Position numbers and translations under genes: made by a program. Shown here piece by piece: positions 9,259-46,353 of a stretch of 47,676 bases of DNA (positions within the stretch are counted from its first letter, which is position 1; each line of letters opens with the position of its first letter). Source of the stretch: an uncultured Acidimicrobiia bacterium (GTDB taxonomy: Bacteria > Actinomycetota > Aquicultoria > CAJVYJ01 > JAUVQD01); the NCBI GenBank assembly GCA_964196305.1, contig CAXMSJ010000078.1, positions 1 to 47,676 of the forward strand, read 5' to 3'. Under the pieces are notes generated by a model. It did not search any database. It had not been told where the DNA came from and was given only the letters and a program-made list of their open reading frames with translations.

Positions 9259-10806
9259 CTAGCTGGTGATGTCTGACGTTTTGAGATCTAGACCGACTGG
9301 TTGTCCCTCTGGAGCGGAGACGGTGTTTCGAATCTCCTTGGCTCGGTACAACGCCTGGTCGGCTTGGTAGATGAGATCTGATTTGTTCGTAGCACTGCTG
9401 GGATAGTTGGCCACGCCAACGCTGATGGTCAATTGTATCTTGTGCTCGGTACCTCCACCGGTAAAGATGGCCTTCTCCACTCCCTCTCGTAATTTCTCTC
9501 CGACCAGAAGAGCATCTTGAAAGTGGGTCTCCGATAGCACAGCCACGAACTCCTCGCCGCCATACCGGGCCACCATGTCCGTCTCACGCGTCAGTTCCTT
9601 GAGGAGGCCGGCAACTTCACGCAAGACCTCATCGCCGCACAAATGGCCATAGTTGTCATTTACTGTCTTGAAGAGATCAAGGTCTACCATGATCAACGAC
9701 AACGGCTTTTCATAGCGGAGCGCCCTGGTCCACTCTTGGTCCAGTCGTTCGGAAAAATACCGGTAGTTGTATATCCCGGTCAGGGCATCGCGAGACGCCC
9801 ATTCTTTTGTCTGCCGATAGAGCCAGGCGTTCTGGATAGAGATGGCCGCCTGTCCGGCCAAGGCCTCCAGAAACCGCAAGTTCTCATATCCGTAGGCATG
9901 AGAAGTGTTTTTCCCGACCATCAAGACCCCAAGCTTTTTTTCGCCTACCCGCAACGGTACGACCATGAGCGACTTAAGCTCGGGCGAGAATGGCATCTGC
10001 CATTTGTGAGGAATGCTCGACAAGGACGTGGGCGTCTGGGAATCTAACACGTGACGGAGCAAGCTCCGCTCGTTATCGATAGTCATGTCTTTTACAACCT
10101 GATCATTAAGGCCTTGGTGGGCCTGAATGCGTAAATTTTCCTGACTGTCTAACATGAACAGTGCCGAGGCATCCGGCGTGAGATCTAACGCTACTATGTT
10201 CAGCACCAGCGGATAGATCTCGGCCACGTTCAGGGTAGAGTTGAGTGCCCGCCCGGTCTCATAGAGAGCGCTGAGATCTACCGCTGATCGACGCAGACGA
10301 TCGGCAATGAATCCCGAAGCGGCAGCGAGAACCACGAACATAATCGCATGGAAGTAACCTTGTTCAACCACGCGCCCGTACAAGCGATCGAGGACGAAAT
10401 AGTAGCTGATAAGGCCGCCTGCCAAAAGTACACTAAAGAACAATGATAGCTTGTGGCCGCCCCGCATGGCGCCAAGAGAGACGGGCACATAATAGAGCAT
10501 GACCAGCGGGGTAGTAAAGCCATCGGCAGCCGCCAATAATACTGTCACCAGCAAAAAAGCCGCCCCAACGGTCAAGTAGTTGCGCGTCTCGTAGGAGACA
10601 CTACGAGAATAAAGCCAACGAGAAAGGAGACCGCCGTCACGCAGATCCCAATGGAAAGCTGCACCAAGGAGAATAATGAGCATCAGAGCGGTCTGGCGCA
10701 CTACGGAAAGACCGGAGGTCAGAGTTAGCCCCAGCAGCACGGCAACAATCACCGGTAAATAGTAGTACCGGATCTGCTGATCTAGATTTCTTTTAGACCA
10801 CTTCAT
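9259..10806 (-). CDS. membrane-bound GAF-GGDEF diguanylate cyclase
   Basis: About 6 N-terminal TM helices, a GAF-like middle region, and a GGDEF domain with an intact RYGGEEF active site and an RETD (RxxD) I-site. Confidence 0.9.
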   Translation of the reverse strand: MKWSKRNLDQQIRYYYLPVIVAVLLGLTLTSGLSVVRQTALMLIILLGAAFHWDLRDGGLLSRWLYSRSVSYETRNYLTVGAAFLLVTVLLAAADGFTTPLVMLYYVPVSLGAMRGGHKLSLFFSVLLAGGLISYYFVLDRLYGRVVEQGYFHAIMFVVLAAASGFIADRLRRSAVDLSALYETGRALNSTLNVAEIYPLVLNIVALDLTPDASALFMLDSQENLRIQAHQGLNDQVVKDMTIDNERSLLRHVLDSQTPTSLSSIPHKWQMPFSPELKSLMVVPLRVGEKKLGVLMVGKNTSHAYGYENLRFLEALAGQAAISIQNAWLYRQTKEWASRDALTGIYNYRYFSERLDQEWTRALRYEKPLSLIMVDLDLFKTVNDNYGHLCGDEVLREVAGLLKELTRETDMVARYGGEEFVAVLSETHFQDALLVGEKLREGVEKAIFTGGGTEHKIQLTISVGVANYPSSATNKSDLIYQADQALYRAKEIRNTVSAPEGQPVGLDLKTSDITS

Positions 10807-29541: not shown

Positions 29542-29877
29542 GTGGCGAACATGGCTGAAGGCATCATCGATTTAACAGACGGAAATTTTGCGACCGAGGT
29601 ACTCGAATCAGATACCCCGGTGTTGGTTGATTTTTGGGCTCCGTGGTGCGGACCCTGCCGCGTAATGGCTCCGGTGATCGAAGGTTTTGCTAAGAAACAT
29701 GCCGGGAAAGTAAAAGTAGGCAAGCTCAACGTAGATGAAAACCAAACTACGGCCGGCTCTCACGAAATACTGAGCATTCCAACATTTATCCTCTTCGTCA
29801 ACGGCAAAGAAGCCAAGAAATTCGTCGGCGCCGTACCGGAAAAGAAGCTCGAAGAAGAGCTCTCCGAGTGGACTTAG
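29542..29877 (+). CDS. trxA: thioredoxin
   Basis: WAPWCGPCR active site; 111 aa. Confidence 0.95.
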   Translation: MANMAEGIIDLTDGNFATEVLESDTPVLVDFWAPWCGPCRVMAPVIEGFAKKHAGKVKVGKLNVDENQTTAGSHEILSIPTFILFVNGKEAKKFVGAVPEKKLEEELSEWT

Positions 29878-29886
29878 GCGCCCGTC

Positions 29887-30078
29887 GTGTGTGAAGCAAA
29901 GGTCTATCTTGAAAAAGACGGCACTCGCGAGCTCCTGATGGAGGACGTTGTGTCTATCAAGCCTGTCGCCAAGGGCTTAAGCCTTATGGACATCATGGGA
30001 CGAGAAAAACCTGTGGCCGCCTCAATTAAAGAAATCAAACTCCTGGAGCACGCCGTACTTCTCGAGCCACTGGGCTAG
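29887..30078 (+). CDS. CooT-family small nickel-binding protein
   Basis: 63 aa. N-terminal MCEAKVYL with the conserved Cys2, and the family-typical length. Confidence 0.75.
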   Translation: MCEAKVYLEKDGTRELLMEDVVSIKPVAKGLSLMDIMGREKPVAASIKEIKLLEHAVLLEPLG

Positions 30079-30824
30079 CGCATACCGAGCAAGGTTTTCA
30101 GATGCTTGGTCTGTCGGCGACTGACCGGCACCTCACTTGACTCTGGATCCCTCATCTTGAGCATATAAAGCCCCCCATAGAGAGCAGTCATCTCAGTAAT
30201 CTGATCAAGGTTGACGACAAAACTGCGATGCGAGCGAAAAAACGACTTTGGCGACAAGCGGGCCTCGAAATCCTTGAGACGCAATGAACTGACGAACTTG
30301 CCTTTCTCACTATTAATAACTGTGAATTCCCCGTGGCTCTCAACAAAGAATATTTCTGCCGGAGACAGTAGGATCGTCTTAGATTGTCTAGTCACCGGGA
30401 TACGGTCAAACAATTCCGTTTCTGAACTCGGCTGCTTGCCGCCGCTAACCGGAGTTTTAACCTTTTTTACTACCCGCTCAACCGCTCTCTTGAGGCGATC
30501 TTCAGATACAGGCTTAACTAAATAGTCCGCTGCCTCCATCTCAAATGCCTTGACGGCAAACTGACCGTAAGCTGTGGTGAAAATAATAGCCGGCTGAGTT
30601 TCCATATCTTTAACCTTCTCGGCCATCTCGAGTCCGTTCATTCCCGGCATATCGATATCAACGAAGGCAATATCGTAGGGAATACTGCTCATCAGTTTCA
30701 AGGCCTCATCAGCCGTACCGGCCTCACCGAGAACTTCGACTTCATCCAGCTTCTCTAATAGATAGCGCATCTCCGAACGGGCCGGGGCCTCGTCATCGAC
30801 GATCAAAGCTTTAATTCTCAACAA
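30075..30824 (-). CDS. LytR/AlgR-family response regulator (REC + LytTR)
   Basis: REC domain with DDE...D (VDIDMPGMNG) and K. C-terminal LytTR (FFRSHRSFVVNL). Confidence 0.93.
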   Translation of the reverse strand: MLRIKALIVDDEAPARSEMRYLLEKLDEVEVLGEAGTADEALKLMSSIPYDIAFVDIDMPGMNGLEMAEKVKDMETQPAIIFTTAYGQFAVKAFEMEAADYLVKPVSEDRLKRAVERVVKKVKTPVSGGKQPSSETELFDRIPVTRQSKTILLSPAEIFFVESHGEFTVINSEKGKFVSSLRLKDFEARLSPKSFFRSHRSFVVNLDQITEMTALYGGLYMLKMRDPESSEVPVSRRQTKHLKTLLGMR

Positions 30825-32118
30825 TTCCTCCCGGGGTCGGTATCCGGAGCGTCACCTCGGTACCTTGTCCCACCGTGCTATTAATATTCATCAAACCGGA
30901 CGATCCATACAGGCTGCTTAGTCTTTCCTTGACATTGTTAAGCCCAATTCCCAAGCCACTCGAGCTATCACTGTCAAACTTTGACAGGCTCTCCGAGCCC
31001 ATACCTACTCCGTCATCATATACTTGCACATACAAGTGAGCGCCTTCCAGTCTAGCAGCTAAACCTAGATGAAGGGGGCCGGACTTTGCCATCCCGTGCT
31101 TGACTGCGTTCTCGACCAGGGGCTGTAAGACCAGCGAGGGCAGCGTGGCCTTCCGGGCCTCTTCGTCGATATGCCAATCAATCTGTAGGCGCTCCCCAAA
31201 ACGAGCCTGCTCGAAAACAAGGTAGGAGTTAACATAACGCAATTCTTCATCCAAGGTCGTAAACTGATTCTGCCTCTCCAGGGACTCGCGAAAAAACCCG
31301 GCGAATTGAATGATCAAGCGCCGCGCGGTCTGCGGATCAGTCCGACAAAGAGCGGCGATAGTGTTCAAAGTGTTGAAAAGAAAATGTGGATTGATTTGAG
31401 CCCGTAAAGCCTTGAGCTCGGAGTGGACCGCCAAGGCTTGTTGCTTGTCAAGCTCTGAGAGCTCTAGCTGGGTGCTAAGGAGAGTGCTCAGCCCGGTCGC
31501 CACGGCAATCCGGTTTTCAGAGAGCTTTTTCGAGGACAAATAGAGAAGCTCCAGTGTTCCCCGGACTTTCCCTTGCACCGAGAGGGGAACGGAAACCCCC
31601 GTCCATTTGCGACTACGACTGTCAGCACTCTTGCCCCCCTCCAGTGCCTGGAACGTCATGACCCCAGCCTGATCTCGCTCGTCGGTCCGAACGAGAAACA
31701 TATCGTACATCATGCCAACCGCTTCCACGCCGACGGCTGCCAGTATCTGATTGCCGTCCACTACAACCACGGCATCGACATCACTGCGGTCAAAGATTAT
31801 CTGGGCGACCTCGCGACCGGTCTCGCCGGTAAAGCCGCGGCGCAGATGAGGCAGGGTCTCATTGGCGATCGTCAACATCTGATGCGACTGCATCGCCCGG
31901 GCCCGCTCCGGGCCTTCGTGCCATTTATAGAGTAGGGTCAAAACAGCAACCAGGCTGATCCCGTAGATAACCCCAACTACGAGAAGGGCGGCGCCGTTGT
32001 TAAATGTAACGCGAAAAATACCGCTAACGAACAGGATGAAGAATATTAGGGCTGAGGCCCCAATTGTCAGCGCACCAAGCGCGATGTATGAGAAAGAAGA
32101 GGGCTGCTTGTTCGCCAT
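30811..32118 (-). CDS. LytS/YehU-type sensor histidine kinase (TM + GAF-like + His_kinase + HATPase_c)
   Basis: LRAQINPHFLFNTLNTI (PF06580-type H box), N box VENAVKHG, G box DDGVGMG...GLGIGLNN. 14-nt overlap with the regulator gene. Confidence 0.9.
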   Translation of the reverse strand: MANKQPSSFSYIALGALTIGASALIFFILFVSGIFRVTFNNGAALLVVGVIYGISLVAVLTLLYKWHEGPERARAMQSHQMLTIANETLPHLRRGFTGETGREVAQIIFDRSDVDAVVVVDGNQILAAVGVEAVGMMYDMFLVRTDERDQAGVMTFQALEGGKSADSRSRKWTGVSVPLSVQGKVRGTLELLYLSSKKLSENRIAVATGLSTLLSTQLELSELDKQQALAVHSELKALRAQINPHFLFNTLNTIAALCRTDPQTARRLIIQFAGFFRESLERQNQFTTLDEELRYVNSYLVFEQARFGERLQIDWHIDEEARKATLPSLVLQPLVENAVKHGMAKSGPLHLGLAARLEGAHLYVQVYDDGVGMGSESLSKFDSDSSSGLGIGLNNVKERLSSLYGSSGLMNINSTVGQGTEVTLRIPTPGGIVEN

Positions 32119-32161: not shown

Positions 32162-32908
32162 TTAGACCAACCTGGATAGCTCAAAGTAGCCTAGAGCCGT
32201 GGCCGCCAAAATAAGAACCAGCCCGAATAAGTGAGCCAGAGACTCGTTCTTCAAGCGGATAGCCGCCCGCGCCCCCAGATAAGTGCCGGGAACGGCACCG
32301 ATGATCAACAACATAGCCAGGCCTAAATCGACATTACCCAGACTGTAGTGAACGAGCGCCGCCGGAACAGTAATTGCGCCGACGACGGAGATAGAAGTAC
32401 CAAGGGCAGTCTTCATGTCAAGGCCCAGCCACAGGCTGAGGAAAGGGACCAGCATGAAACCTCCTCCAAGGCCCAGGACTCCGGAAACCACGCCAATCGC
32501 TGCGCCAACCACTGCCAGCCACCGCCGGCTAATATCCTTCTCCGCGACCTCCCTGGCTGCTCCTTTTCCGACCACGAAGCGCACGCCAAGCACTAGAATT
32601 ATTCCAGCGGTCATCAGCAAGATCAAGTTGCCCCCGACCAACGGGGTCAAAAGCGCGCCAATGACCGAGCCAACGATACCGGCCGGTGCCAAGATACGCA
32701 CTCGCGCCCACGAAACATATCCGCGCCGACCGTAGGAGACCGCGCCGACCAGTGATGCCGGGATATTGACGAGCATCGGCGTCCCGACAACAATCAGAGC
32801 CGGCTCTCCGAGAATCATCCTAACCGCCGGCTTGGTAATCAATCCACCCCCGAGCCCGAAGTGGCCGGAGAGAAACCCCGAAGCAAGTCCGATCAAGGCC
32901 TCAAGCAT
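32162..32908 (-). CDS. TauE/SafE-family anion exporter
   Basis: Eight TM helices and duplicated GxGGG motifs. I prefer ATG 32908 (MLEALIGLASGFLSG), which overlaps the upstream stop by 8 nt (ATGCTTGA). Confidence 0.85.
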   Translation of the reverse strand: MLEALIGLASGFLSGHFGLGGGLITKPAVRMILGEPALIVVGTPMLVNIPASLVGAVSYGRRGYVSWARVRILAPAGIVGSVIGALLTPLVGGNLILLMTAGIILVLGVRFVVGKGAAREVAEKDISRRWLAVVGAAIGVVSGVLGLGGGFMLVPFLSLWLGLDMKTALGTSISVVGAITVPAALVHYSLGNVDLGLAMLLIIGAVPGTYLGARAAIRLKNESLAHLFGLVLILAATALGYFELSRLV

Positions 32909-34460
32909 CGGCAGCCACCGCTCGTTCTGCCTCTGCCAAGGCCTCCGCCCCAGAGGCCTGACCATTGAGCTCCACAGCCGCCGCCCTGATCAGAAGACGT
33001 ACTCCCACGTCTTCGGCTAACCAGAAAACAGTCGCTGCTACTTTCTCGCGGAGCCTCTCAAAGACCGCGGTCGCCGACCGCTCGCCCGTTTCAGGCAAGA
33101 GCAAGGCAAAAGTGTGCGGGCCACTTAACGCCAGAGTATCACTCTCCCGAGCCTGACCGGCCAATACCTGTGTTAAAAGGACAATGGCCCTATCGGAAGC
33201 GCGGCGCCCATAGCGAGTAATGATTTCGTCGATCTCCGCGATCCGGAAGGTCGCCAGCGTCAACTTCCTTGAATAGCGGACTGCCCGTTTCATCTCCTGA
33301 TCCAGCGCCCGCTCCAACCCGACTCTGTTCAGCAGCCCGGTCAAGACATCAGCGTCTGCTGTTGGTTGGAACTGAGTGAGGGCAGACCGTAGGCGCTCGT
33401 TCTCTAGGGGCAGGCAGGCCGACCAATCAGAATACCCCCGGACTACAGCCGCCGCCTGCTCCTGACAAGTCTGGTAGCCACAGACCATACAATCGAGACG
33501 TGATTCACGCTCATTCAGACCAGCCCCCAAGAGCTGTTCCTCCAATTGACCCGAGGAAACCTCCCTGACGTGCGGCGGACGCACAGAGAAGCCGATTGCC
33601 TGAGCCAGATGACTCAAGGGCCGAAGCTGCTCATCGGAAAGACGGGGGCCGGTCCCGTTAAGGGCGGTCGCGCATTGACCGCACCCGTGAATGTCATGGA
33701 AAATCGCCTCGGAGTCTGCACCACTGCTCTGCGGCAGCTGATCGAGGAGCAATTGGGGATCAAAAGGAGCCGACTCTTGAGCCAACATCCCGGTATCAAT
33801 CTTAATACCCCGCTCCTCCAGCATCAGCAATAATTGGGACATCGAGATGACAGCCACCGGTGCCTGATCGTCTCGGTCGACAACGGTCTTAGCCCCCAGG
33901 CACGAGGTGATCAGAACCACGTTCGGGCGCTTCGGATAGACTTCTCTCACGAGCCGGCTCTGAACCTCGGACTCGGTGGCCAACGGCACCAGTGCGTCAA
34001 TCAGGTCTGGTCGAAACTGCTCGACCAAGTTGACCACTACTGGACACGAAGATCTGATCAACGGCCCGCTCTCGTGGAGCGCCCGCACTTCCCGGTACTG
34101 AAAATCCAGAAGTTGCCGCGCGGCCGAACCATCCTCAACCGCCAAGAAGCCAAGTGAAGTCAGCGCCTCCTGCCAAACCGTCCAACTCACGCCCGACCAA
34201 GCGGCTCGAACCTCCGGAGTCAAAACAGCAACTGCCGCGCCGCCCTCAAGGCATTCGGCTACCACTGCCGATTCATCGGTAGCCAACAGCGCATTCTGGG
34301 TGCAGACCGAGACACAAGCGCCACAAGCAATACAACGATCCATGTCGACCTCAAGGACGTCACTGGTGACCATGATAGCCTTAGGCGAGCAAATGCGAAC
34401 GCAATGTCGGCAACGCCGGCAAGCACTGGTTTGGGTCTGAATAATCTGTGAGGCGGCCAT
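32901..34460 (-). CDS. Fe-S sensor protein: 2x[4Fe-4S] ferredoxin + [FeFe]-hydrogenase-large-subunit-like domain + CX2CX4CX17C Fe-S domain + degenerate GGDEF domain
   Basis: CRRCRHCVRICSP and CIACGACVSVC; SSCPVVV, ITSCLGAKT, HGCGQC; DCMVCGYQTCQ...ACLP. The GGDEF fold (LTGLLNRVGLERAL...) keeps RESD (RxxD), but its active site reads SGPHTF (33108-33125). I prefer ATG 34460 (MAASQ) to the start at 34532. Confidence 0.85.
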   Translation of the reverse strand: MAASQIIQTQTSACRRCRHCVRICSPKAIMVTSDVLEVDMDRCIACGACVSVCTQNALLATDESAVVAECLEGGAAVAVLTPEVRAAWSGVSWTVWQEALTSLGFLAVEDGSAARQLLDFQYREVRALHESGPLIRSSCPVVVNLVEQFRPDLIDALVPLATESEVQSRLVREVYPKRPNVVLITSCLGAKTVVDRDDQAPVAVISMSQLLLMLEERGIKIDTGMLAQESAPFDPQLLLDQLPQSSGADSEAIFHDIHGCGQCATALNGTGPRLSDEQLRPLSHLAQAIGFSVRPPHVREVSSGQLEEQLLGAGLNERESRLDCMVCGYQTCQEQAAAVVRGYSDWSACLPLENERLRSALTQFQPTADADVLTGLLNRVGLERALDQEMKRAVRYSRKLTLATFRIAEIDEIITRYGRRASDRAIVLLTQVLAGQARESDTLALSGPHTFALLLPETGERSATAVFERLREKVAATVFWLAEDVGVRLLIRAAAVELNGQASGAEALAEAERAVAADA

Positions 34461-34490: not shown

Positions 34491-34641
34491 TAAGTATAGA
34501 GGACGGGGAGAGCAAAACCAAGGCAGGCTCACTCATGAAAAACCGCCTGATAGTTTGACTTGCGGCTGCTCGCACTGTACAGTTGAATACTGCCAGGAGC
34601 TCATCAAATGGGTCTTTGCGAAACAGATTATGGAGGCGTGA

Positions 34642-35070
34642 GTGGACGATCAAAAGACGCCCGGCGAGCTGCCCAACAACGCCACGGAAATTACGGAAAG
34701 TTGTTCTTTATTCATCTCCGACGAAACTGATTTTCCGATTGTAAGCATCGCCGGAGAAGTCGATCTTTCCAGTGCACCCACCGCATATTCCCTGCTCTGG
34801 CAGACTAGCAACGAGGGCAGCCGCTCCTTGATCATCAACCTTGAAGAACTTGAGTTTATGGACTCGTCCGGGCTGCAAGCCCTCTTGCGGTTGCGCGAGA
34901 AACTACGAGCTCGCAAGCAACGGGTCGTGCTGGTTGGAGGTAAGCCGCCCATTACGAAACTCTTTAAATTAACGGGCTTTGACCAGCTATTCGCGATCTT
35001 CCAAAGCGAACAAGAAGCTAAGGATGAGCTGAAGCTAAGCGCGTCTTCACCAGCCGCACCGCCTCAATAG
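34642..35070 (+). CDS. STAS-domain protein (anti-sigma-factor antagonist family)
   Basis: FMDSSGLQALLRL...VVLVGGKPPITKLFKLTGFDQLF. GTG start, with GGAGG 5 nt upstream. Confidence 0.85.
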   Translation: MDDQKTPGELPNNATEITESCSLFISDETDFPIVSIAGEVDLSSAPTAYSLLWQTSNEGSRSLIINLEELEFMDSSGLQALLRLREKLRARKQRVVLVGGKPPITKLFKLTGFDQLFAIFQSEQEAKDELKLSASSPAAPPQ

Positions 35071-42010: not shown

Positions 42011-45000
42011 ATGGCAGAACATAATACTATTTGCGGAATCTGCCCTGCCGGTTGCTGGGTGCGCGTCGAGCTCGAAAATGGCCGACTCACTTCCGTCAAA
42101 GCCCAACCGGACCACCCACTGGGGATGATCTGCCGGCTCGGAGAAAGATCGCCGGAGATCGTCTATTCCTCAGACCGCCTGAAACAACCGCAAAAGCGAG
42201 TCGGACCTAAGGGCACATTCAACTTCCGCCCGATCAGCTGGGATGAAGCTTACGAAGAGATCGTCGCCAACCTGGAGAAGACAAAGACTGAGTTTGGTCC
42301 CGAAGCGACTGCCATCTATACCGGGCGAGGCAGCTTTGATCTGGCCATGTGTGATATTTTTCAACCTCAGGACACCGCTGTCTCTTCGGCTTCCAGCGTC
42401 CTCTTTCCATTTGGATCGCCCAATACTTTTGGCGTTGGGGCTCTCTGCTATGTCTCGTTCGCCATGATCGCACCCCACGTCACTATGGGCGGCATGCTGA
42501 TCAACATGGATTCCGAGATAGAGGACGCCGAATTGATCGTTATCTGGGGAACTAATCCGGCGACGGACTGCCCACCTCTGGCTCACCACCAGATACTGGC
42601 GGCACAGAAGAATGGGGCCGAAGTCGTCGTCATCGACCCCAGACAGACCGCCACCGCCAAGGCCACTGGAGCGGACTGGATCCCGATACGCCCCGGGACA
42701 GACGGCGCCCTGGCCCTGAGCATGATCCAGGTCCTAATCGAGGAAGATCTCGTGGACGAGGACTTCATTGACGACTGGACCGTCGGATTCGATGACCTAA
42801 AGCAGTATGTTCAACATTTCACCCCAGAGGCAGCGGCGGAGATCACCACGGTACCGGCTGATACGATCCGACGACTGGCGCGACGCATCCACGGCGCGCG
42901 CGGAGCGGCTCCGGTCATGTATAGCGGTCTTGAGTACTCCGACGGCGGCGTCCAAGCCATCCGGGCCACCCAGATTCTTTGGGCACTCGCAGGCCAGCTC
43001 GATGTTCCGGGTGGCCGGGTTTTCAAAATGGACAGCAACTCCTTTCCTATCAATAAGAGCGGCTTGATACCAAACCCTGATGTCTCCAAAGCGATCGGTC
43101 GTGACCGCTTCCCGGTATACAGCCAATACCGCGGCGAATCCCATGCTATCTCCCTGCCGGAAGCCGTCCTGCAAGGGCGACCTTACCCGATCAAAAGCCT
43201 GATCGTGGTAGGCGGGTCCATCGTCACTGCCTGGCCGGAACCGGACACCTGGCGGCGGACGCTCGGCGAGTTGGACTTCTTGGTCACGATCGACCGACAA
43301 CTGACGGCCGATGCCGCCTATGCCGATATCGTTTTGCCGGCCACTACCGGCTATGAGAACACCTCGTATATGGTGTACGGCCCGCTATTTAGGATCCGGG
43401 AGAAGCTGCTTGAGCCACAGGGAGAAGCACGCAATGACTTTTTCATCCTGGCTGAACTAGCCAAGCGTCTTGGCTATGGCGAGCTCTATCCGCAAAGTGA
43501 GGATGAGCTGCTTGACTACGTGCTGTCGCAGTCCGGGGAGACAGCGGCGTCGGTGCGAGCGGCCGGGGGAACAGCCCAAGTGCCGACGGTCATGATGCAA
43601 TACAAAAAATGGGAAAAGGGGCTGCTGCGCACCGACGGACAGCCTGGTTTTAATACGCCCTCCGGCAAGTTTGAGATTGCCTCGACTACCCTGGAAGAAC
43701 ATGGCTATGATGCCCTACCTGTCTATACCGAGCCAAAAGAAGGACCGCTGACCCGGTCCGACTTGGCCGAAACGTTTCCGCTCGTCTTCAATTCTGGAGC
43801 ACGAGTGACGACTGACTTCCGCTCCCAGCACCATGGGGTGCCCAGCTTAGCCGCCGAGTCCCCCGAACCGCTGGTGACAATGAACACCAAGGATGCCCGC
43901 AAGCGAGGCATCAAGCCCGGCGAGGAGGTCATCGTCGCCACCGAACGGGGGCGGGCTCGTTTTCGCGCCTATGTGACCGACGACATCATTGAAGGTTCGG
44001 TCGATGCCAATATGGGTGGCGGCGGACCGATCGGACCGCAGGCCTGGCAAGAATGTAATGTCAATGTCCTCACAGACTTGGGTCGATACGACCCGATATC
44101 AGGCTTTCCTGTCTATAAAGCACTCTTGTGCGAGGTGGAGCCGGTAGCTAGCCGAGTACCTAGTACCGTGGAAGAGATTTTAGCCGATGATCAAGAAGGA
44201 CCGGCCCGTGAACAACCAGCTCAATTCCCCGCCAAAGTAGCTGAGCCGGCTCAGGAGCGCCGCCTAGTCTATTTCGACAACAACGCCACCACCGCCATCG
44301 ATCCAACGGTCTTCACGGCCATGGAGCCGTTTCTCAAAAATGACTACGGTAATCCGTCGAGCATCCATGGATTGGGCTCGCAAGCGCGAGAGGCAGTCGA
44401 GTCAGCCCGGAGAGTTTTGGCCAGGTCTCTCAACACCACGGCCCGCCGAATCATTTTTACGGGTAGCGGCTCGGAAGCTGATAATCTTGCGATCAAAGGC
44501 GTGGCCCGGGCGCTGGCTGAGCAAGGACGCCATATAATTACTTCTGCCGTTGAGCATCCAGCAGTTCTGGCCGCCTGCCGCGCTCTGGAGGCTGACGGGT
44601 TCACAGTCACTTATCTGCCCGTAACAGACGAAGGCCTGGTCGAGCCGGCCAAATTAGAGGCGGCCTTTAGGCCCGAGACGATCCTGGTCTCAATCATGAC
44701 CGCCAACAATGAAACCGGCACTTTACAGCCGATCGCCACTCTGGCGGCGATGGCTAAAGCCCGCCGCGTACTCTTTCATACCGATGCCGTCCAGGGATTC
44801 GGAAAAATCACCCTCGATGTCGAACAGCTGGGAGTCGATCTATTGTCGATATCAGCCCATAAGATACACGGCCCCAAGGGGGTCGGCGCCCTCTACGTCC
44901 GGCGCGGCACACCACTGGCTTCGCTAATCGGCGGCGGAAAACAGGAATCCGGCTTGCGGGCCGGGACAGAAAATGTCTCGGGCATTGTCGGTTTCGGAGC

Positions 45001-45418
45001 CGCCGCCGACCTCGCCTTGCGTCGCCTGCCTGATTGGGACGCTGCCTCCCGACTCCGTGACCGTCTCGAGAACCGGATACTGCCGCTCGTCCCAGGAGCC
45101 AAAATCAACGGCTCAACAGAGCAGCGGCTGCCGAACACCTTGAATCTGACTTTACCAGGGTTTCGCGGAGAGTCTGTTGTCTTCAAGCTTGACCGCCTGG
45201 GTATCGCCCTATCTTCCGGCTCGGCCTGTAAGTCCGGCTCACCAGATCCGTCACACGCCCTGATGGCTCTAGGATTGACAGAAGATGAAGCCCATTGCTC
45301 ATTGCGCTTCTCGACTAGCGTCGATACGACCGAAGAGGAGATCGACTATGTCGCTCAAGCGCTGGAGCGGATGGTCGAGCAAGCGGCCGAATCAGTCAGG
45401 TTCATCCCATGCAGATGA
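42011..45418 (+). CDS. fusion protein: Mo/W-bis(pyranopterin guanine dinucleotide) enzyme (acetylene-hydratase-like) + NifS/IscS-type cysteine desulfurase; candidate metallopterin-dependent ergothioneine synthase
   Basis: Residues 1 to about 712: C8-x2-C11-x3-C15...C41 [4Fe-4S] motif, candidate metal-ligand Cys146 (GALCYVS), and a C-terminal pterin-binding barrel (VTMNTKDARKRGIKPGEEVIV...). Pro/Glu/Ala linker at nt 44147-44260. Residues about 750-1135: VYFDNNATT, PLP Lys951 (SAHKIHGPKG), persulfide Cys1073 (SSGSACKSG). The frame is uninterrupted across the junction. Confidence 0.85.
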   Translation: MAEHNTICGICPAGCWVRVELENGRLTSVKAQPDHPLGMICRLGERSPEIVYSSDRLKQPQKRVGPKGTFNFRPISWDEAYEEIVANLEKTKTEFGPEATAIYTGRGSFDLAMCDIFQPQDTAVSSASSVLFPFGSPNTFGVGALCYVSFAMIAPHVTMGGMLINMDSEIEDAELIVIWGTNPATDCPPLAHHQILAAQKNGAEVVVIDPRQTATAKATGADWIPIRPGTDGALALSMIQVLIEEDLVDEDFIDDWTVGFDDLKQYVQHFTPEAAAEITTVPADTIRRLARRIHGARGAAPVMYSGLEYSDGGVQAIRATQILWALAGQLDVPGGRVFKMDSNSFPINKSGLIPNPDVSKAIGRDRFPVYSQYRGESHAISLPEAVLQGRPYPIKSLIVVGGSIVTAWPEPDTWRRTLGELDFLVTIDRQLTADAAYADIVLPATTGYENTSYMVYGPLFRIREKLLEPQGEARNDFFILAELAKRLGYGELYPQSEDELLDYVLSQSGETAASVRAAGGTAQVPTVMMQYKKWEKGLLRTDGQPGFNTPSGKFEIASTTLEEHGYDALPVYTEPKEGPLTRSDLAETFPLVFNSGARVTTDFRSQHHGVPSLAAESPEPLVTMNTKDARKRGIKPGEEVIVATERGRARFRAYVTDDIIEGSVDANMGGGGPIGPQAWQECNVNVLTDLGRYDPISGFPVYKALLCEVEPVASRVPSTVEEILADDQEGPAREQPAQFPAKVAEPAQERRLVYFDNNATTAIDPTVFTAMEPFLKNDYGNPSSIHGLGSQAREAVESARRVLARSLNTTARRIIFTGSGSEADNLAIKGVARALAEQGRHIITSAVEHPAVLAACRALEADGFTVTYLPVTDEGLVEPAKLEAAFRPETILVSIMTANNETGTLQPIATLAAMAKARRVLFHTDAVQGFGKITLDVEQLGVDLLSISAHKIHGPKGVGALYVRRGTPLASLIGGGKQESGLRAGTENVSGIVGFGAAADLALRRLPDWDAASRLRDRLENRILPLVPGAKINGSTEQRLPNTLNLTLPGFRGESVVFKLDRLGIALSSGSACKSGSPDPSHALMALGLTEDEAHCSLRFSTSVDTTEEEIDYVAQALERMVEQAAESVRFIPCR

Positions 45419-46353
45419 ACGGGAGCCACGCCTTTGCAGCCAGCGTGCTACGCGGACTCAGCCTTGACCCGCGGCGGCTGGAGTGCCGGTATATCTATGA
45501 CGAATTCGGCAGCCGCCTCTTCGAGCAAATCTGCGAACAACCTGAGTACTACCTAACCCGGGCAGAGCGCACCATCCTGCTGGAAGCGGCGGACGAGATC
45601 GCCCGCCTCACGGGGCCGGCCGCCCTGATAGAATTCGGCTCCGGTAATTCTGCCAAAACACGCATATTATTAAACGCCTACGCCGAGCGATACGGTGGCG
45701 TCCGCTATATTCCTGTAGATATCAGCGACTCAATACTAGAGCACGCGGAAGCAGAGCTCGCCACGGCAGCCCCATTGGCCACAGTAGATTCCTTCCATGG
45801 CACTTATGATGATGCCTTCCATCTTTTTGATTCGTTTTCTCCGCTGGTATTCCTCTTCCTGGGGAGCAATGTGGGGAATCTGGATCCGGCAGAAGCAGCC
45901 GCCTTCTGGTCGGAGATCAGCTCCAATCTCTCCGTGGGAGACTTCTGTCTTCTGGGCGTAGACATCACACAAGACTCAGACGCGCTTCATGCCGCCTATA
46001 ATGACGCGGCCGGATACAGCGCTAGGTTCACGAAAAATATCTTCTCCAGAATAAACCGTGAGCTCGGAGCTTCAATAGATATTGCGACTATAGAACACGT
46101 GGCTGCGTTTAGCGCCCCGCGCAATCAAGTGGAGATTTTCGCCAAATTCACTCAAGCGCAACAGATAGATATCGCTCCTTTGGGCCAGAGCGTGTCGATC
46201 GAGGCAAACGCCTTGGTTATGACCGAGATAAGCCGTAAATTCCGGATCGATGAGATCAGGCCCTATCTAGAACACTACCGGCTGGAGACCCGCCATGTCT
46301 TCAGTAATGACGGACAAAACTTCGCCTTGCTTCTCCTGGCCAAGACCGACTAA
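45409..46353 (+). CDS. egtD: L-histidine N-alpha-methyltransferase (EgtD/EanA-type)
   Basis: YIYDEFGSRLFEQICEQPEYYLTRAE, SAM loop EFGSGNSAKT, YIPVDIS, FLGSNVGNL, YNDAAGYSARFTKNIFSRINRELG and TEISRKF all align with EgtD as I remember it. The start overlaps the upstream stop (ATGCAGATGA). Confidence 0.88.
   Translation: MQMNGSHAFAASVLRGLSLDPRRLECRYIYDEFGSRLFEQICEQPEYYLTRAERTILLEAADEIARLTGPAALIEFGSGNSAKTRILLNAYAERYGGVRYIPVDISDSILEHAEAELATAAPLATVDSFHGTYDDAFHLFDSFSPLVFLFLGSNVGNLDPAEAAAFWSEISSNLSVGDFCLLGVDITQDSDALHAAYNDAAGYSARFTKNIFSRINRELGASIDIATIEHVAAFSAPRNQVEIFAKFTQAQQIDIAPLGQSVSIEANALVMTEISRKFRIDEIRPYLEHYRLETRHVFSNDGQNFALLLLAKTD

Follow-up and report, generated by a model that had tools for sequence, protein, structure and literature searches.

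The sensory [FeFe]-hydrogenases of groups C (M2f, TmHydS) and D (M2e, TamHydS), classes C1–C3 of HydDB, are modular proteins in which a 2x[4Fe-4S] domain, a hydrogenase-like H-domain and a C-terminal cluster motif (PMC8163306, PMC13104023) occur in that order, and relatives of these modules are fused to outputs such as kinases, methyl-accepting chemotaxis proteins (MCPs), PAS-sigma-54 modules and GGDEF-HD-GYP modules (PMC8163306, PMC13104023, PMC5037454). A protein built on the same frame, described here and termed the window protein or the sensor, is encoded in an uncultured Acidimicrobiia bacterium (Actinomycetota, Aquicultoria in GTDB; assembly GCA_964196305.1) within a 47,676-nucleotide stretch of contig CAXMSJ010000078.1, which is referred to throughout as the window. 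The Cx2Cx4Cx16C spacing of the C-terminal motif reported for both sensory groups is identical in the window protein (PMC8163306), and in all of them the H-cluster motif L1 is devoid of the proton-relay Cys. The window protein differs from these systems in having no PAS domain (a feature of group C only) and a dead GGDEF domain as output, in its truncated H-domain with a shifted L2 Lys and an L3 of CxxC rather than CxxxC spacing (the CxxxC reference being CpI), and in a genome in which neither HydG, HydE and HydF nor a catalytic hydrogenase was found. HydDB has [FeFe] classes linked to kinases, MCPs and phosphatases but none linked to a diguanylate cyclase, a label that it reserves for [NiFe] group 2c (PMC5037454). 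A literature search found no publication on GGDEF domains attached to an Fe-S sensor, [FeFe]-hydrogenase-like or otherwise, and database names for the family are generic only.

At its other end the window protein resembles PopA of Caulobacter and SgmT of Myxococcus, the precedents for degenerate GGDEF domains acting as receptors of cyclic diguanylate (c-di-GMP), in which a degenerate active site (A-site) is likewise accompanied by an intact RxxD allosteric site (I-site) and by a secondary I-site Arg of described role (PMC3509222). As in the window protein, the phosphate ligands K442 and R446 have been lost and a sensor protein carries the receptor domain. The partner domains of PopA and SgmT are REC or GAF-kinase, however, whereas that of the window protein is an Fe-S/hydrogenase-like module, and c-di-GMP binding, demonstrated for PopA and SgmT, is here predicted from sequence. 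A further likeness is to Nar1/NARFL-type proteins, which are also derived from the H-domain, keep the cubane-ligating Cys without a diiron subcluster and work without HydE, HydF and HydG (HydEFG). Unlike the window protein, these are eukaryotic Fe-S assembly factors with a full-length domain and canonical CxxxC spacing, and to our knowledge they have neither a C-terminal Cx2Cx4Cx16C cluster nor a signalling domain. Set against these systems, the window protein represents something new: a receptor-like, pocket-less, degenerate clade within a family of sensor cyclases, with an eroded H-domain and a descent from intact cyclases.

Domain architecture and fold

A sequence-only reading of this DNA had described one open reading frame (ORF) in which two ferredoxin-type clusters, an H-domain-like region with the motifs SSCP, TSCLGAK and GCGQC, a further Fe-S domain and a GGDEF fold with the I-site motif RESD follow one another. 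The ORF and all of these motifs are present, and a Pfam scan bore out the order of the four domains (Table 1); the C-terminal Fe-S motif, which that reading had written CX2CX4CX17C, is off by one and is in fact Cx2Cx4Cx16C. Although the longest frame extends to a GTG at 34532, the start was placed at the MAASQII-equivalent ATG because all relatives begin at the equivalent MxxSEII residue. The gene call of a public collection (P0002, 490 aa) starts 29 residues late, at M30, and would drop the first of the two cluster motifs of the N-terminal ferredoxin (F-) domain, C14xxC17xxC20xxxC24 and C43xxC46xxC49xxxC53. All 16 cluster cysteines of the protein are invariant in an 8-sequence (A1) and a 13-sequence (A2) alignment. 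Pfam gave no PAS match anywhere in the sensor, and the GGDEF domain comes straight after the C-terminal cluster. In NCBIfam, the top match is a model of monomeric [FeFe]-hydrogenases, far under its cut-off, with diguanylate cyclase models next.

A match of the middle domain to Fe_hyd_lg_C and a comparison of predicted structures had both been named as checks on the proposed architecture. The middle domain does match this profile, in part, and a structural model agrees. An AlphaFold2 (AF2) model computed with an 87-sequence alignment reached a pLDDT of 91.7 and a pTM of 0.75 and was used in place of an earlier one from the 8-sequence alignment (pLDDT 60.5), which was discarded. Foldseek placed the C-terminus of the model on solved GGDEF domains with a root-mean-square deviation of 1.6–2.0 Å (TMt ~0.8) and its N-terminal half on the [FeFe]-hydrogenases CbA5H, HydABC HydA, DdH and CpI at 3.6–3.9 Å over ~250 columns. 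The match in domains and fold is far beyond chance.

A lost cyclase site and a retained I-site

The residues of the GGDEF domain were mapped by residue-level alignment to DgcR and to the 3ign cyclase and are compared here with PleD by its numbering. In the stretch that replaces DxDxFKxxND, the Mg ligand D327 has become R406, the second Asp A408, the FK motif I410 and D411, and the guanine ligand N335 I414; only D344 is retained, as D423. The hexapeptide SGPHTF, taken as the active site in the sequence-only reading, does span S446–F451 (nt 33108–33125), but only G447–F451 replaces GGEEF, S446 being the position before the A-site remnant, where the intact cyclases of the family have Y or F. The protein also stops short of the AKxxGRN helix, the C-terminal phosphate-binding helix that would carry the equivalents of K442 and R446. 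Because the Mg and guanine ligands, GGEEF and the AKxxGRN helix have all been lost, canonical cyclase catalysis by this domain is excluded, which agrees with the catalytic death proposed from the sequence.

The I-site, whose retention had also been proposed, is in place: R438-E-S-D441 is followed by four residues and, last, S446, and then by GPHTF, so that RxxD lies five residues upstream of the degenerate A-site. The equivalent of R471, the secondary I-site Arg, is retained in six of the seven members of the clade to which the protein belongs. Across this clade the former active-site stretch varies (RIAEIDEIIT, AVEDVDKIAG, EVESFSALVD), while RExD is invariant, and in the wider family RxxD is retained in 14 of 16 degenerate sequences, which cover at least three independent losses of the A-site. 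This differential conservation, with RExD fixed and the A-site drifting, provides the best argument, albeit an indirect one, that c-di-GMP binding may be the retained function of the domain.

Erosion of the hydrogenase-like domain

The three H-cluster motifs diverge from those of catalytic enzymes, as had been noted from the sequence, L1 having a single Cys, L2 its Lys at C+4 and L3 a CxxC spacing. In the relatives with other outputs and in several cyclase-fused members, L2 reads PCxxK, with the Lys at C+3, the position of CpI K358. The four Cys at the aligned H-cluster-ligating positions (C139, C187, C260 and C263) are kept, and the spacing between L1 and L2 is constant across the family at 47–48 residues. 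The distance between L2 and L3, in contrast, is 105–107 aa in most members, 95 in P0007, 79 in P0003–P0006 and 73 in the window protein (C187 to C260), the shortest of all, from which ~34 residues have been deleted. In the profile alignment, the missing piece is a conserved PGGFP/SGGLL segment that aligns to F417–L428 of CpI (FGATGGVMEAAL); the equivalent of the loop at F417, a residue that we take to line the diiron pocket, is deleted in P0001 and P0003–P0006. The Fe_hyd_lg_C match of the window protein accordingly covers profile positions 4–170 of 245 only, whereas those of relatives reach 245/245, and what remains between L2 and L3 is less conserved than any other part of the protein, with 8% invariant columns vs 25–38% elsewhere. 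L3 is CxxC across the family vs CHGGC in CpI; this spacing alone was not taken as disqualifying, because L3 of TmHydS may be either CxxC or CxxxC. The alignments thus indicate that the H-domain itself is eroded and that elements of the diiron pocket, namely the C+3 Lys and the F417 loop, are gone.

Family and descent from intact cyclases

A word-indexed search of 5.8 billion proteins returned seven full-length relatives only. When 1.84 billion representatives were searched exhaustively with a profile, ~30 clusters (at 50% identity) were found to cover the whole profile including the GGDEF domain, and more than 100 to match the sensor module only (profile positions ~5–370). Sampled proteins of the latter kind carry HisKA/HATPase, MCP signalling, PAS plus sigma-54 activator or PAS-kinase-receiver outputs; one of them, P0109, is M2e-like and has no output domain, and one GGDEF-bearing relative, P0049, has an additional HD-GYP domain. 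Judged by their genome loci, the hosts of the GGDEF-fused family are uncultured Actinomycetota (metagenome-assembled genomes of Actinomycetes and Coriobacteriia) and Coriobacteriaceae bacterium EMTCatB1. Most members of the family have an intact RYGGDEF.

The direct homologs with an intact cyclase (P0008, P0009 and L012–L022, including the EMTCatB1 locus L015) are 29–39% identical to the window protein and share with it the four-domain order, an RS[ST]CP L1, a CxGC L3, the Fe-S Cys set and a gene neighbourhood with TauE, a LytS-type kinase and LytTR. They keep GGDEF, DxDxFKxxND, AKxxGRN and a full H-domain (Pfam 3–245/245, 105 bits for P0009), all of which the clade of the window protein has lost, and many of their genomes encode [NiFeSe] hydrogenases, whereas none was found in that of the window. 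In a tree built from the sensor module alone, one clade with a support of 99 is made up of GGDEF-output proteins only, and within it the window protein and P0003–P0007 form a degenerate clade (support 100) nested among the intact cyclases P0032, P0008, L012 and L013. At least three independent losses of the A-site are seen in the family, the other cases being L015/L017/L020, P0048, P0050, P0044 and P0047. The GTDB order of the window's bacterium comprises eight species; the degenerate type is found in all three species of its genus and the intact type in the other genera of the family. The window protein belongs to a small, derived clade within an Actinomycetota family, itself undescribed, in which hydrogenase-like sensors are joined to intact cyclases.

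Decay of the opposite kind is seen in a side lineage (P0053, P0055 and P0100), in which GGDEF is intact and the Cys at the H-cluster positions have been lost to a varying extent: four of four in P0053 (S/G/Y/D), three of four in P0100 (C/S/W/S) and none in P0055. In P0055 and P0100 the C-terminal Fe-S motif has lost its first Cys as well. Because this lineage keeps GGDEF while losing cluster Cys, the losses of the sensor site and of the cyclase site are independent.

Maturases, hydrogenases and c-di-GMP enzymes in the genome

The assembly that holds the window is 1.31 Mb long in 114 contigs and 87.65% complete; the genome is ~1.5 Mb. The sensor gene is its sole Fe_hyd_lg_C match, and no [NiFe] or other hydrogenase was found in it. 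HydG has no match at all in this genome, and HydE and HydF have only sub-threshold radical-SAM and GTPase matches, TIGR03955, TIGR03918 and TIGR03956 all remaining under cut-off. Among 14 genomes (that of the window and 13 with relatives), none has HydG above cut-off; the Thermotoga and Bacteroides positive controls were detected. Genomes G001–G004 give only partial, group-3/4-like hydrogenase matches. The Coriobacteriia-type genomes G005–G013, which hold intact or RGDQF-type sensors, encode [NiFeSe] hydrogenase large subunits that are full length and contain one in-frame TGA (selenocysteine).

The same genome has 11 GGDEF matches, eight of them strong, and 13 HD_5 (HD-GYP-type) matches; no EAL and no PilZ domain was found in it, nor any of the receptor families searched for. 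With ~20 turnover genes, its c-di-GMP network is unusually dense for so small a genome. One of the cyclases, a GAF-GGDEF protein at 9259–10806 of the window that had already been called intact, does have GGEEF, DLDLFKTVND and RETD.

Gene neighbourhood and other features of the window

The probable start of the downstream gene for a TauE/SafE-family membrane protein is M20 of its ORF, TauE homologs aligning from residue 19–20 onwards. As this start overlaps the stop of the sensor gene by 8 nt, the two genes are likely to be co-transcribed, and their adjacency is common to L010–L013, L036 and L038. The gene for a LytS-type kinase that follows is syntenic in every locus long enough to show it (L011–L017, L019–L021, L023 and L036), and the divergent gene for a STAS-domain protein adjoins the sensor in L010–L013, L018, L036 and L038. 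The order of the sensor, TauE, kinase, regulator and STAS genes is repeated throughout the related loci.

Table 1. Sensor gene, its parts and neighbouring features, by position in the window
Feature	Position	Strand	Remarks
Whole sensor gene	32901..34460	(-)	519 aa; ATG start 34460, stop 32901-32903; Fer4x2 / hydrogenase-like / FeS / degenerate GGDEF
N-terminal 2x[4Fe-4S] ferredoxin (F-) domain	34287..34436	(-)	residues 9-58; Pfam Fer4, Fer4_7, Fer4_9, Fer4_10 and dicluster models
Hydrogenase-like H-domain, N-terminal lobe	33792..34232	(-)	residues 77-223; Fe_hyd_lg_C 52.6 bits, E 6.4e-14
L1-equivalent SSCP (C139)	34041..34052	(-)	single Cys; the proton-relay Cys is missing, as it is in groups C and D
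L2-equivalent TSCLGAK (C187)	33888..33908	(-)	Lys at C+4
Eroded L2-L3 remnant	33687..33875	(-)	residues 196-258; model pLDDT 70-80
L3-equivalent GCGQC (C260, C263)	33672..33686	(-)	CxxC spacing; following DGP of the family lost
C-terminal Fe-S motif C324-x2-C327-x4-C332-x16-C349	33414..33491	(-)	PF04060, residues 322-351, 25.1 bits
GGDEF-fold domain, catalytically degenerate	32916..33359	(-)	residues 368-515; PF00990 58.4 bits, E 9.9e-16
Former metal-/GTP-binding stretch R406-T415 (RIAEIDEIIT)	33216..33245	(-)	replaces DxDxFKxxND
I-site R438-E-S-D441 (RxxD)	33138..33149	(-)	R438, E439 and D441 invariant in 8/8 A1 sequences, degenerate and intact
A-site remnant G447-P-H-T-F451	33108..33122	(-)	replaces GG(D/E)EF
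R471 (in ERLRE)	33048..33050	(-)	corresponds to PleD R390 and SgmT R794, the secondary I-site Arg
TauE/SafE-family membrane protein	32162..32908	(-)	from the probable start, M20 of the ORF
LytS-type histidine kinase	30811..32118	(-)	His_kinase PF06580 and HATPase_c; downstream, same strand
LytTR response regulator	30075..30824	(-)	overlaps the kinase gene
STAS-domain protein	34642..35070	(+)	anti-sigma-antagonist type; divergent from the sensor
Perfect 16-bp palindrome TTTTGGATATCCAAAA	34475..34490	.	14 nt upstream of the sensor start codon

Upstream of the sensor, the palindrome lies just after a TATACT -10-like hexamer (34493–34498) and is unique in the genome except for one site with two mismatches. 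It is not conserved upstream of relatives, where the -10-like CTCTATACT element is conserved; it may be an operator, a minor lead. A scan for promoters and terminators gave only weak intragenic matches.

In L014–L023, the stretch ~10 bp to 3 kb beyond the sensor gene (e.g. L015 9771–12768) holds three genes: immediately next to the sensor one for a radical-SAM protein, then a DsbA-like gene, then a conserved ORF of 424 aa with no Pfam match. This gene set, situated between the sensor and TauE, occurs in the Coriobacteriia-type branch only and is absent from the window locus. An argument for loss of a maturase from the missing radical-SAM neighbour was dropped, as a 40%-identical radical-SAM homolog sits on another contig of the window genome.

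Two further gene pairs of the window stand apart from the sensor. At 29542–30078 (+), a 63-aa CooT-family protein (PF10133, 78 bits) directly follows a thioredoxin, a pair conserved in L011–L013 and L036; no carbon monoxide dehydrogenase genes were found in the window. At 42011–46353 (+), a gene for a 1135-aa fusion of a molybdopterin oxidoreductase with a class-V aminotransferase (cysteine desulfurase-like) overlaps one for an EgtD-type histidine methyltransferase, a pair that looks like the metallopterin-dependent (anaerobic) ergothioneine pathway of MES and EgtD.

Function and rival explanations

The most likely reading, which still seems to us about evenly balanced between right and wrong, is that the window protein is a multi-[4Fe-4S], redox-responsive and c-di-GMP-binding pseudo-cyclase that does not sense H2. 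It descends from the Actinomycetota family in which a sensory [FeFe]-hydrogenase module (2x[4Fe-4S], H-domain and Cx2Cx4Cx16C cluster) is joined to a diguanylate cyclase that is active. Within the window's genus, the active site of the cyclase was destroyed and the H-domain lobe that would cover a diiron subcluster was deleted, whereas the 16 cysteines, enough for at most four [4Fe-4S] clusters, and the allosteric c-di-GMP site (RxxD and the secondary Arg) remained under constraint. The product would be a soluble multi-cluster protein, a pseudo-enzyme twice over, in which the cubane chain may report the redox, O2 or nitric oxide status of the cell, not H2, and the GGDEF fold may act as a c-di-GMP-binding dimerisation or receptor module. 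Such a protein could integrate redox state and c-di-GMP level and exert its output through protein-protein contact, the candidate partners being the co-transcribed TauE-family protein, the LytS/LytTR pair and the divergent STAS protein. Binding of c-di-GMP rather than its synthesis, as the sequence-only reading had suggested, is supported indirectly by the invariant RExD, by the secondary Arg and by the many c-di-GMP enzymes of a genome without PilZ, and the interpretation offered in that reading is, overall, partly supported. A more specific and rather unlikely version holds that the protein is a redox-gated c-di-GMP effector, in which the affinity or quaternary response of the GGDEF dimer with its I-site is set by the oxidation state or integrity of the [4Fe-4S] chain, or the reverse, and the complex controls the TauE transporter, LytS/LytTR or a STAS partner-switch.

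On current evidence the sensor gene is maintained. The ORF is intact and full length in every member of the clade, across lineages 38–50% identical, and family-specific GGDEF motifs such as ATxFWLxED are retained. The ratio of non-synonymous to synonymous rates (dN/dS) between L010 and L011 is 0.17 overall, 0.14 in the sensor part and 0.26 in the GGDEF part, although these values rest on small counts, 32 synonymous and 16 non-synonymous differences. That caveat is one of several that weigh against a redox-responsive c-di-GMP receptor. For every member of the family, the number and occupancy of the clusters, their redox behaviour, the binding of c-di-GMP and the nature of both signal and output are inferred, and the persistence of RxxD could reflect inheritance or structural reasons. 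The collinearity of the locus runs on to the housekeeping genes lysC, asd and por, and the synteny may reflect conservation of the backbone and need not mean that the genes are functionally linked. Absence of HydEFG is no proof that the H-cluster is missing, since most archaeal genomes with active [FeFe] hydrogenases are without these genes (PMC11216029), and the window genome is incomplete. Finally, within a fully collinear block the sensor is the fastest-evolving gene, at 46–50% identity vs 60–88% for its neighbours in the same genomes; between species of the genus it is 46% identical, compared with 78–88% for the adjoining genes of the regulator, the kinase, thioredoxin and CooT, a marked local acceleration that fits relaxed constraint as well as new function.

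Because of this rapid evolution, a relic under relaxed selection was kept as the main rival explanation: a decaying or structural Fe-S protein, maybe a ferredoxin-like electron carrier, in which the GGDEF fold merely holds a dimer, RxxD persists by inertia and there is neither c-di-GMP binding nor output. We regard it as doubtful, yet worth serious consideration, for both functional sites have been eroded progressively, the C-terminus is truncated and, with an L2–L3 interval of 73 aa, no copy is as reduced as that of the window. A gene in free decay is difficult to reconcile, however, with ORFs that are intact despite deep divergence, with 16 Cys and RExD that are invariant while adjacent segments drift, and with the low dN/dS, the GGDEF part included, and the conserved GGDEF motifs cited above. 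Much less probable is a true H2 sensor, in which the four Cys would hold a complete H-cluster matured by another route and H2 status would be relayed through the GGDEF fold. The ligating positions are conserved, M2e and M2f proteins share the F-domain and Cx2Cx4Cx16C frame and are also without the relay Cys (PMC8163306), and active hydrogenases do occur in genomes without HydEFG; but the F417–L428 pocket segment is deleted, the C+3 Lys and the DGP after L3 are lost, L3 has shrunk to CxxC, Pfam matches only part of the H-domain, none of the 14 genomes has HydG above cut-off, HydE and HydF are absent from that of the window, and this genome has no catalytic hydrogenase to regulate. H2, one of the signals that the earlier reading had offered, is thus unlikely to be what is sensed. 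That the protein is still a nucleotide cyclase, working through a non-canonical active site, is scarcely credible: its GGDEF fold is intact, and some proteins with altered motifs, e.g. AGDEF, stay active (PMC3974145), yet here the losses are cumulative, comprising both metal carboxylates, the FK motif, the guanine Asn (now I414) and the helix that would supply K442 and R446, and the former active-site stretch is not conserved even among members of the clade.

Implications

We know of no hydrogenase-like 'sensory' module for which a signal or an output has been demonstrated to date. The small clade described here constitutes a natural dissection of such a module: the lobe of the diiron pocket has gone along with the cyclase site, and the cubane ligands and the I-site are kept. 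A contrast with an intact sister, e.g. P0008, would show what the Fe-S frame can sense when it has no H-cluster, whether the core function conserved at the GGDEF end is binding at the I-site, and how an enzyme-sensor fusion becomes a receptor. For the bacterium itself, an uncultured actinobacterium with a tiny genome, a dense GGDEF/HD-GYP network and no PilZ, the protein is a candidate c-di-GMP receptor. If it were indeed a redox-gated effector, it could be a principal receptor for the c-di-GMP made and degraded by the products of those turnover genes, and a natural case of an enzyme-sensor fusion turned into a receptor by the loss of both of its catalytic centres.

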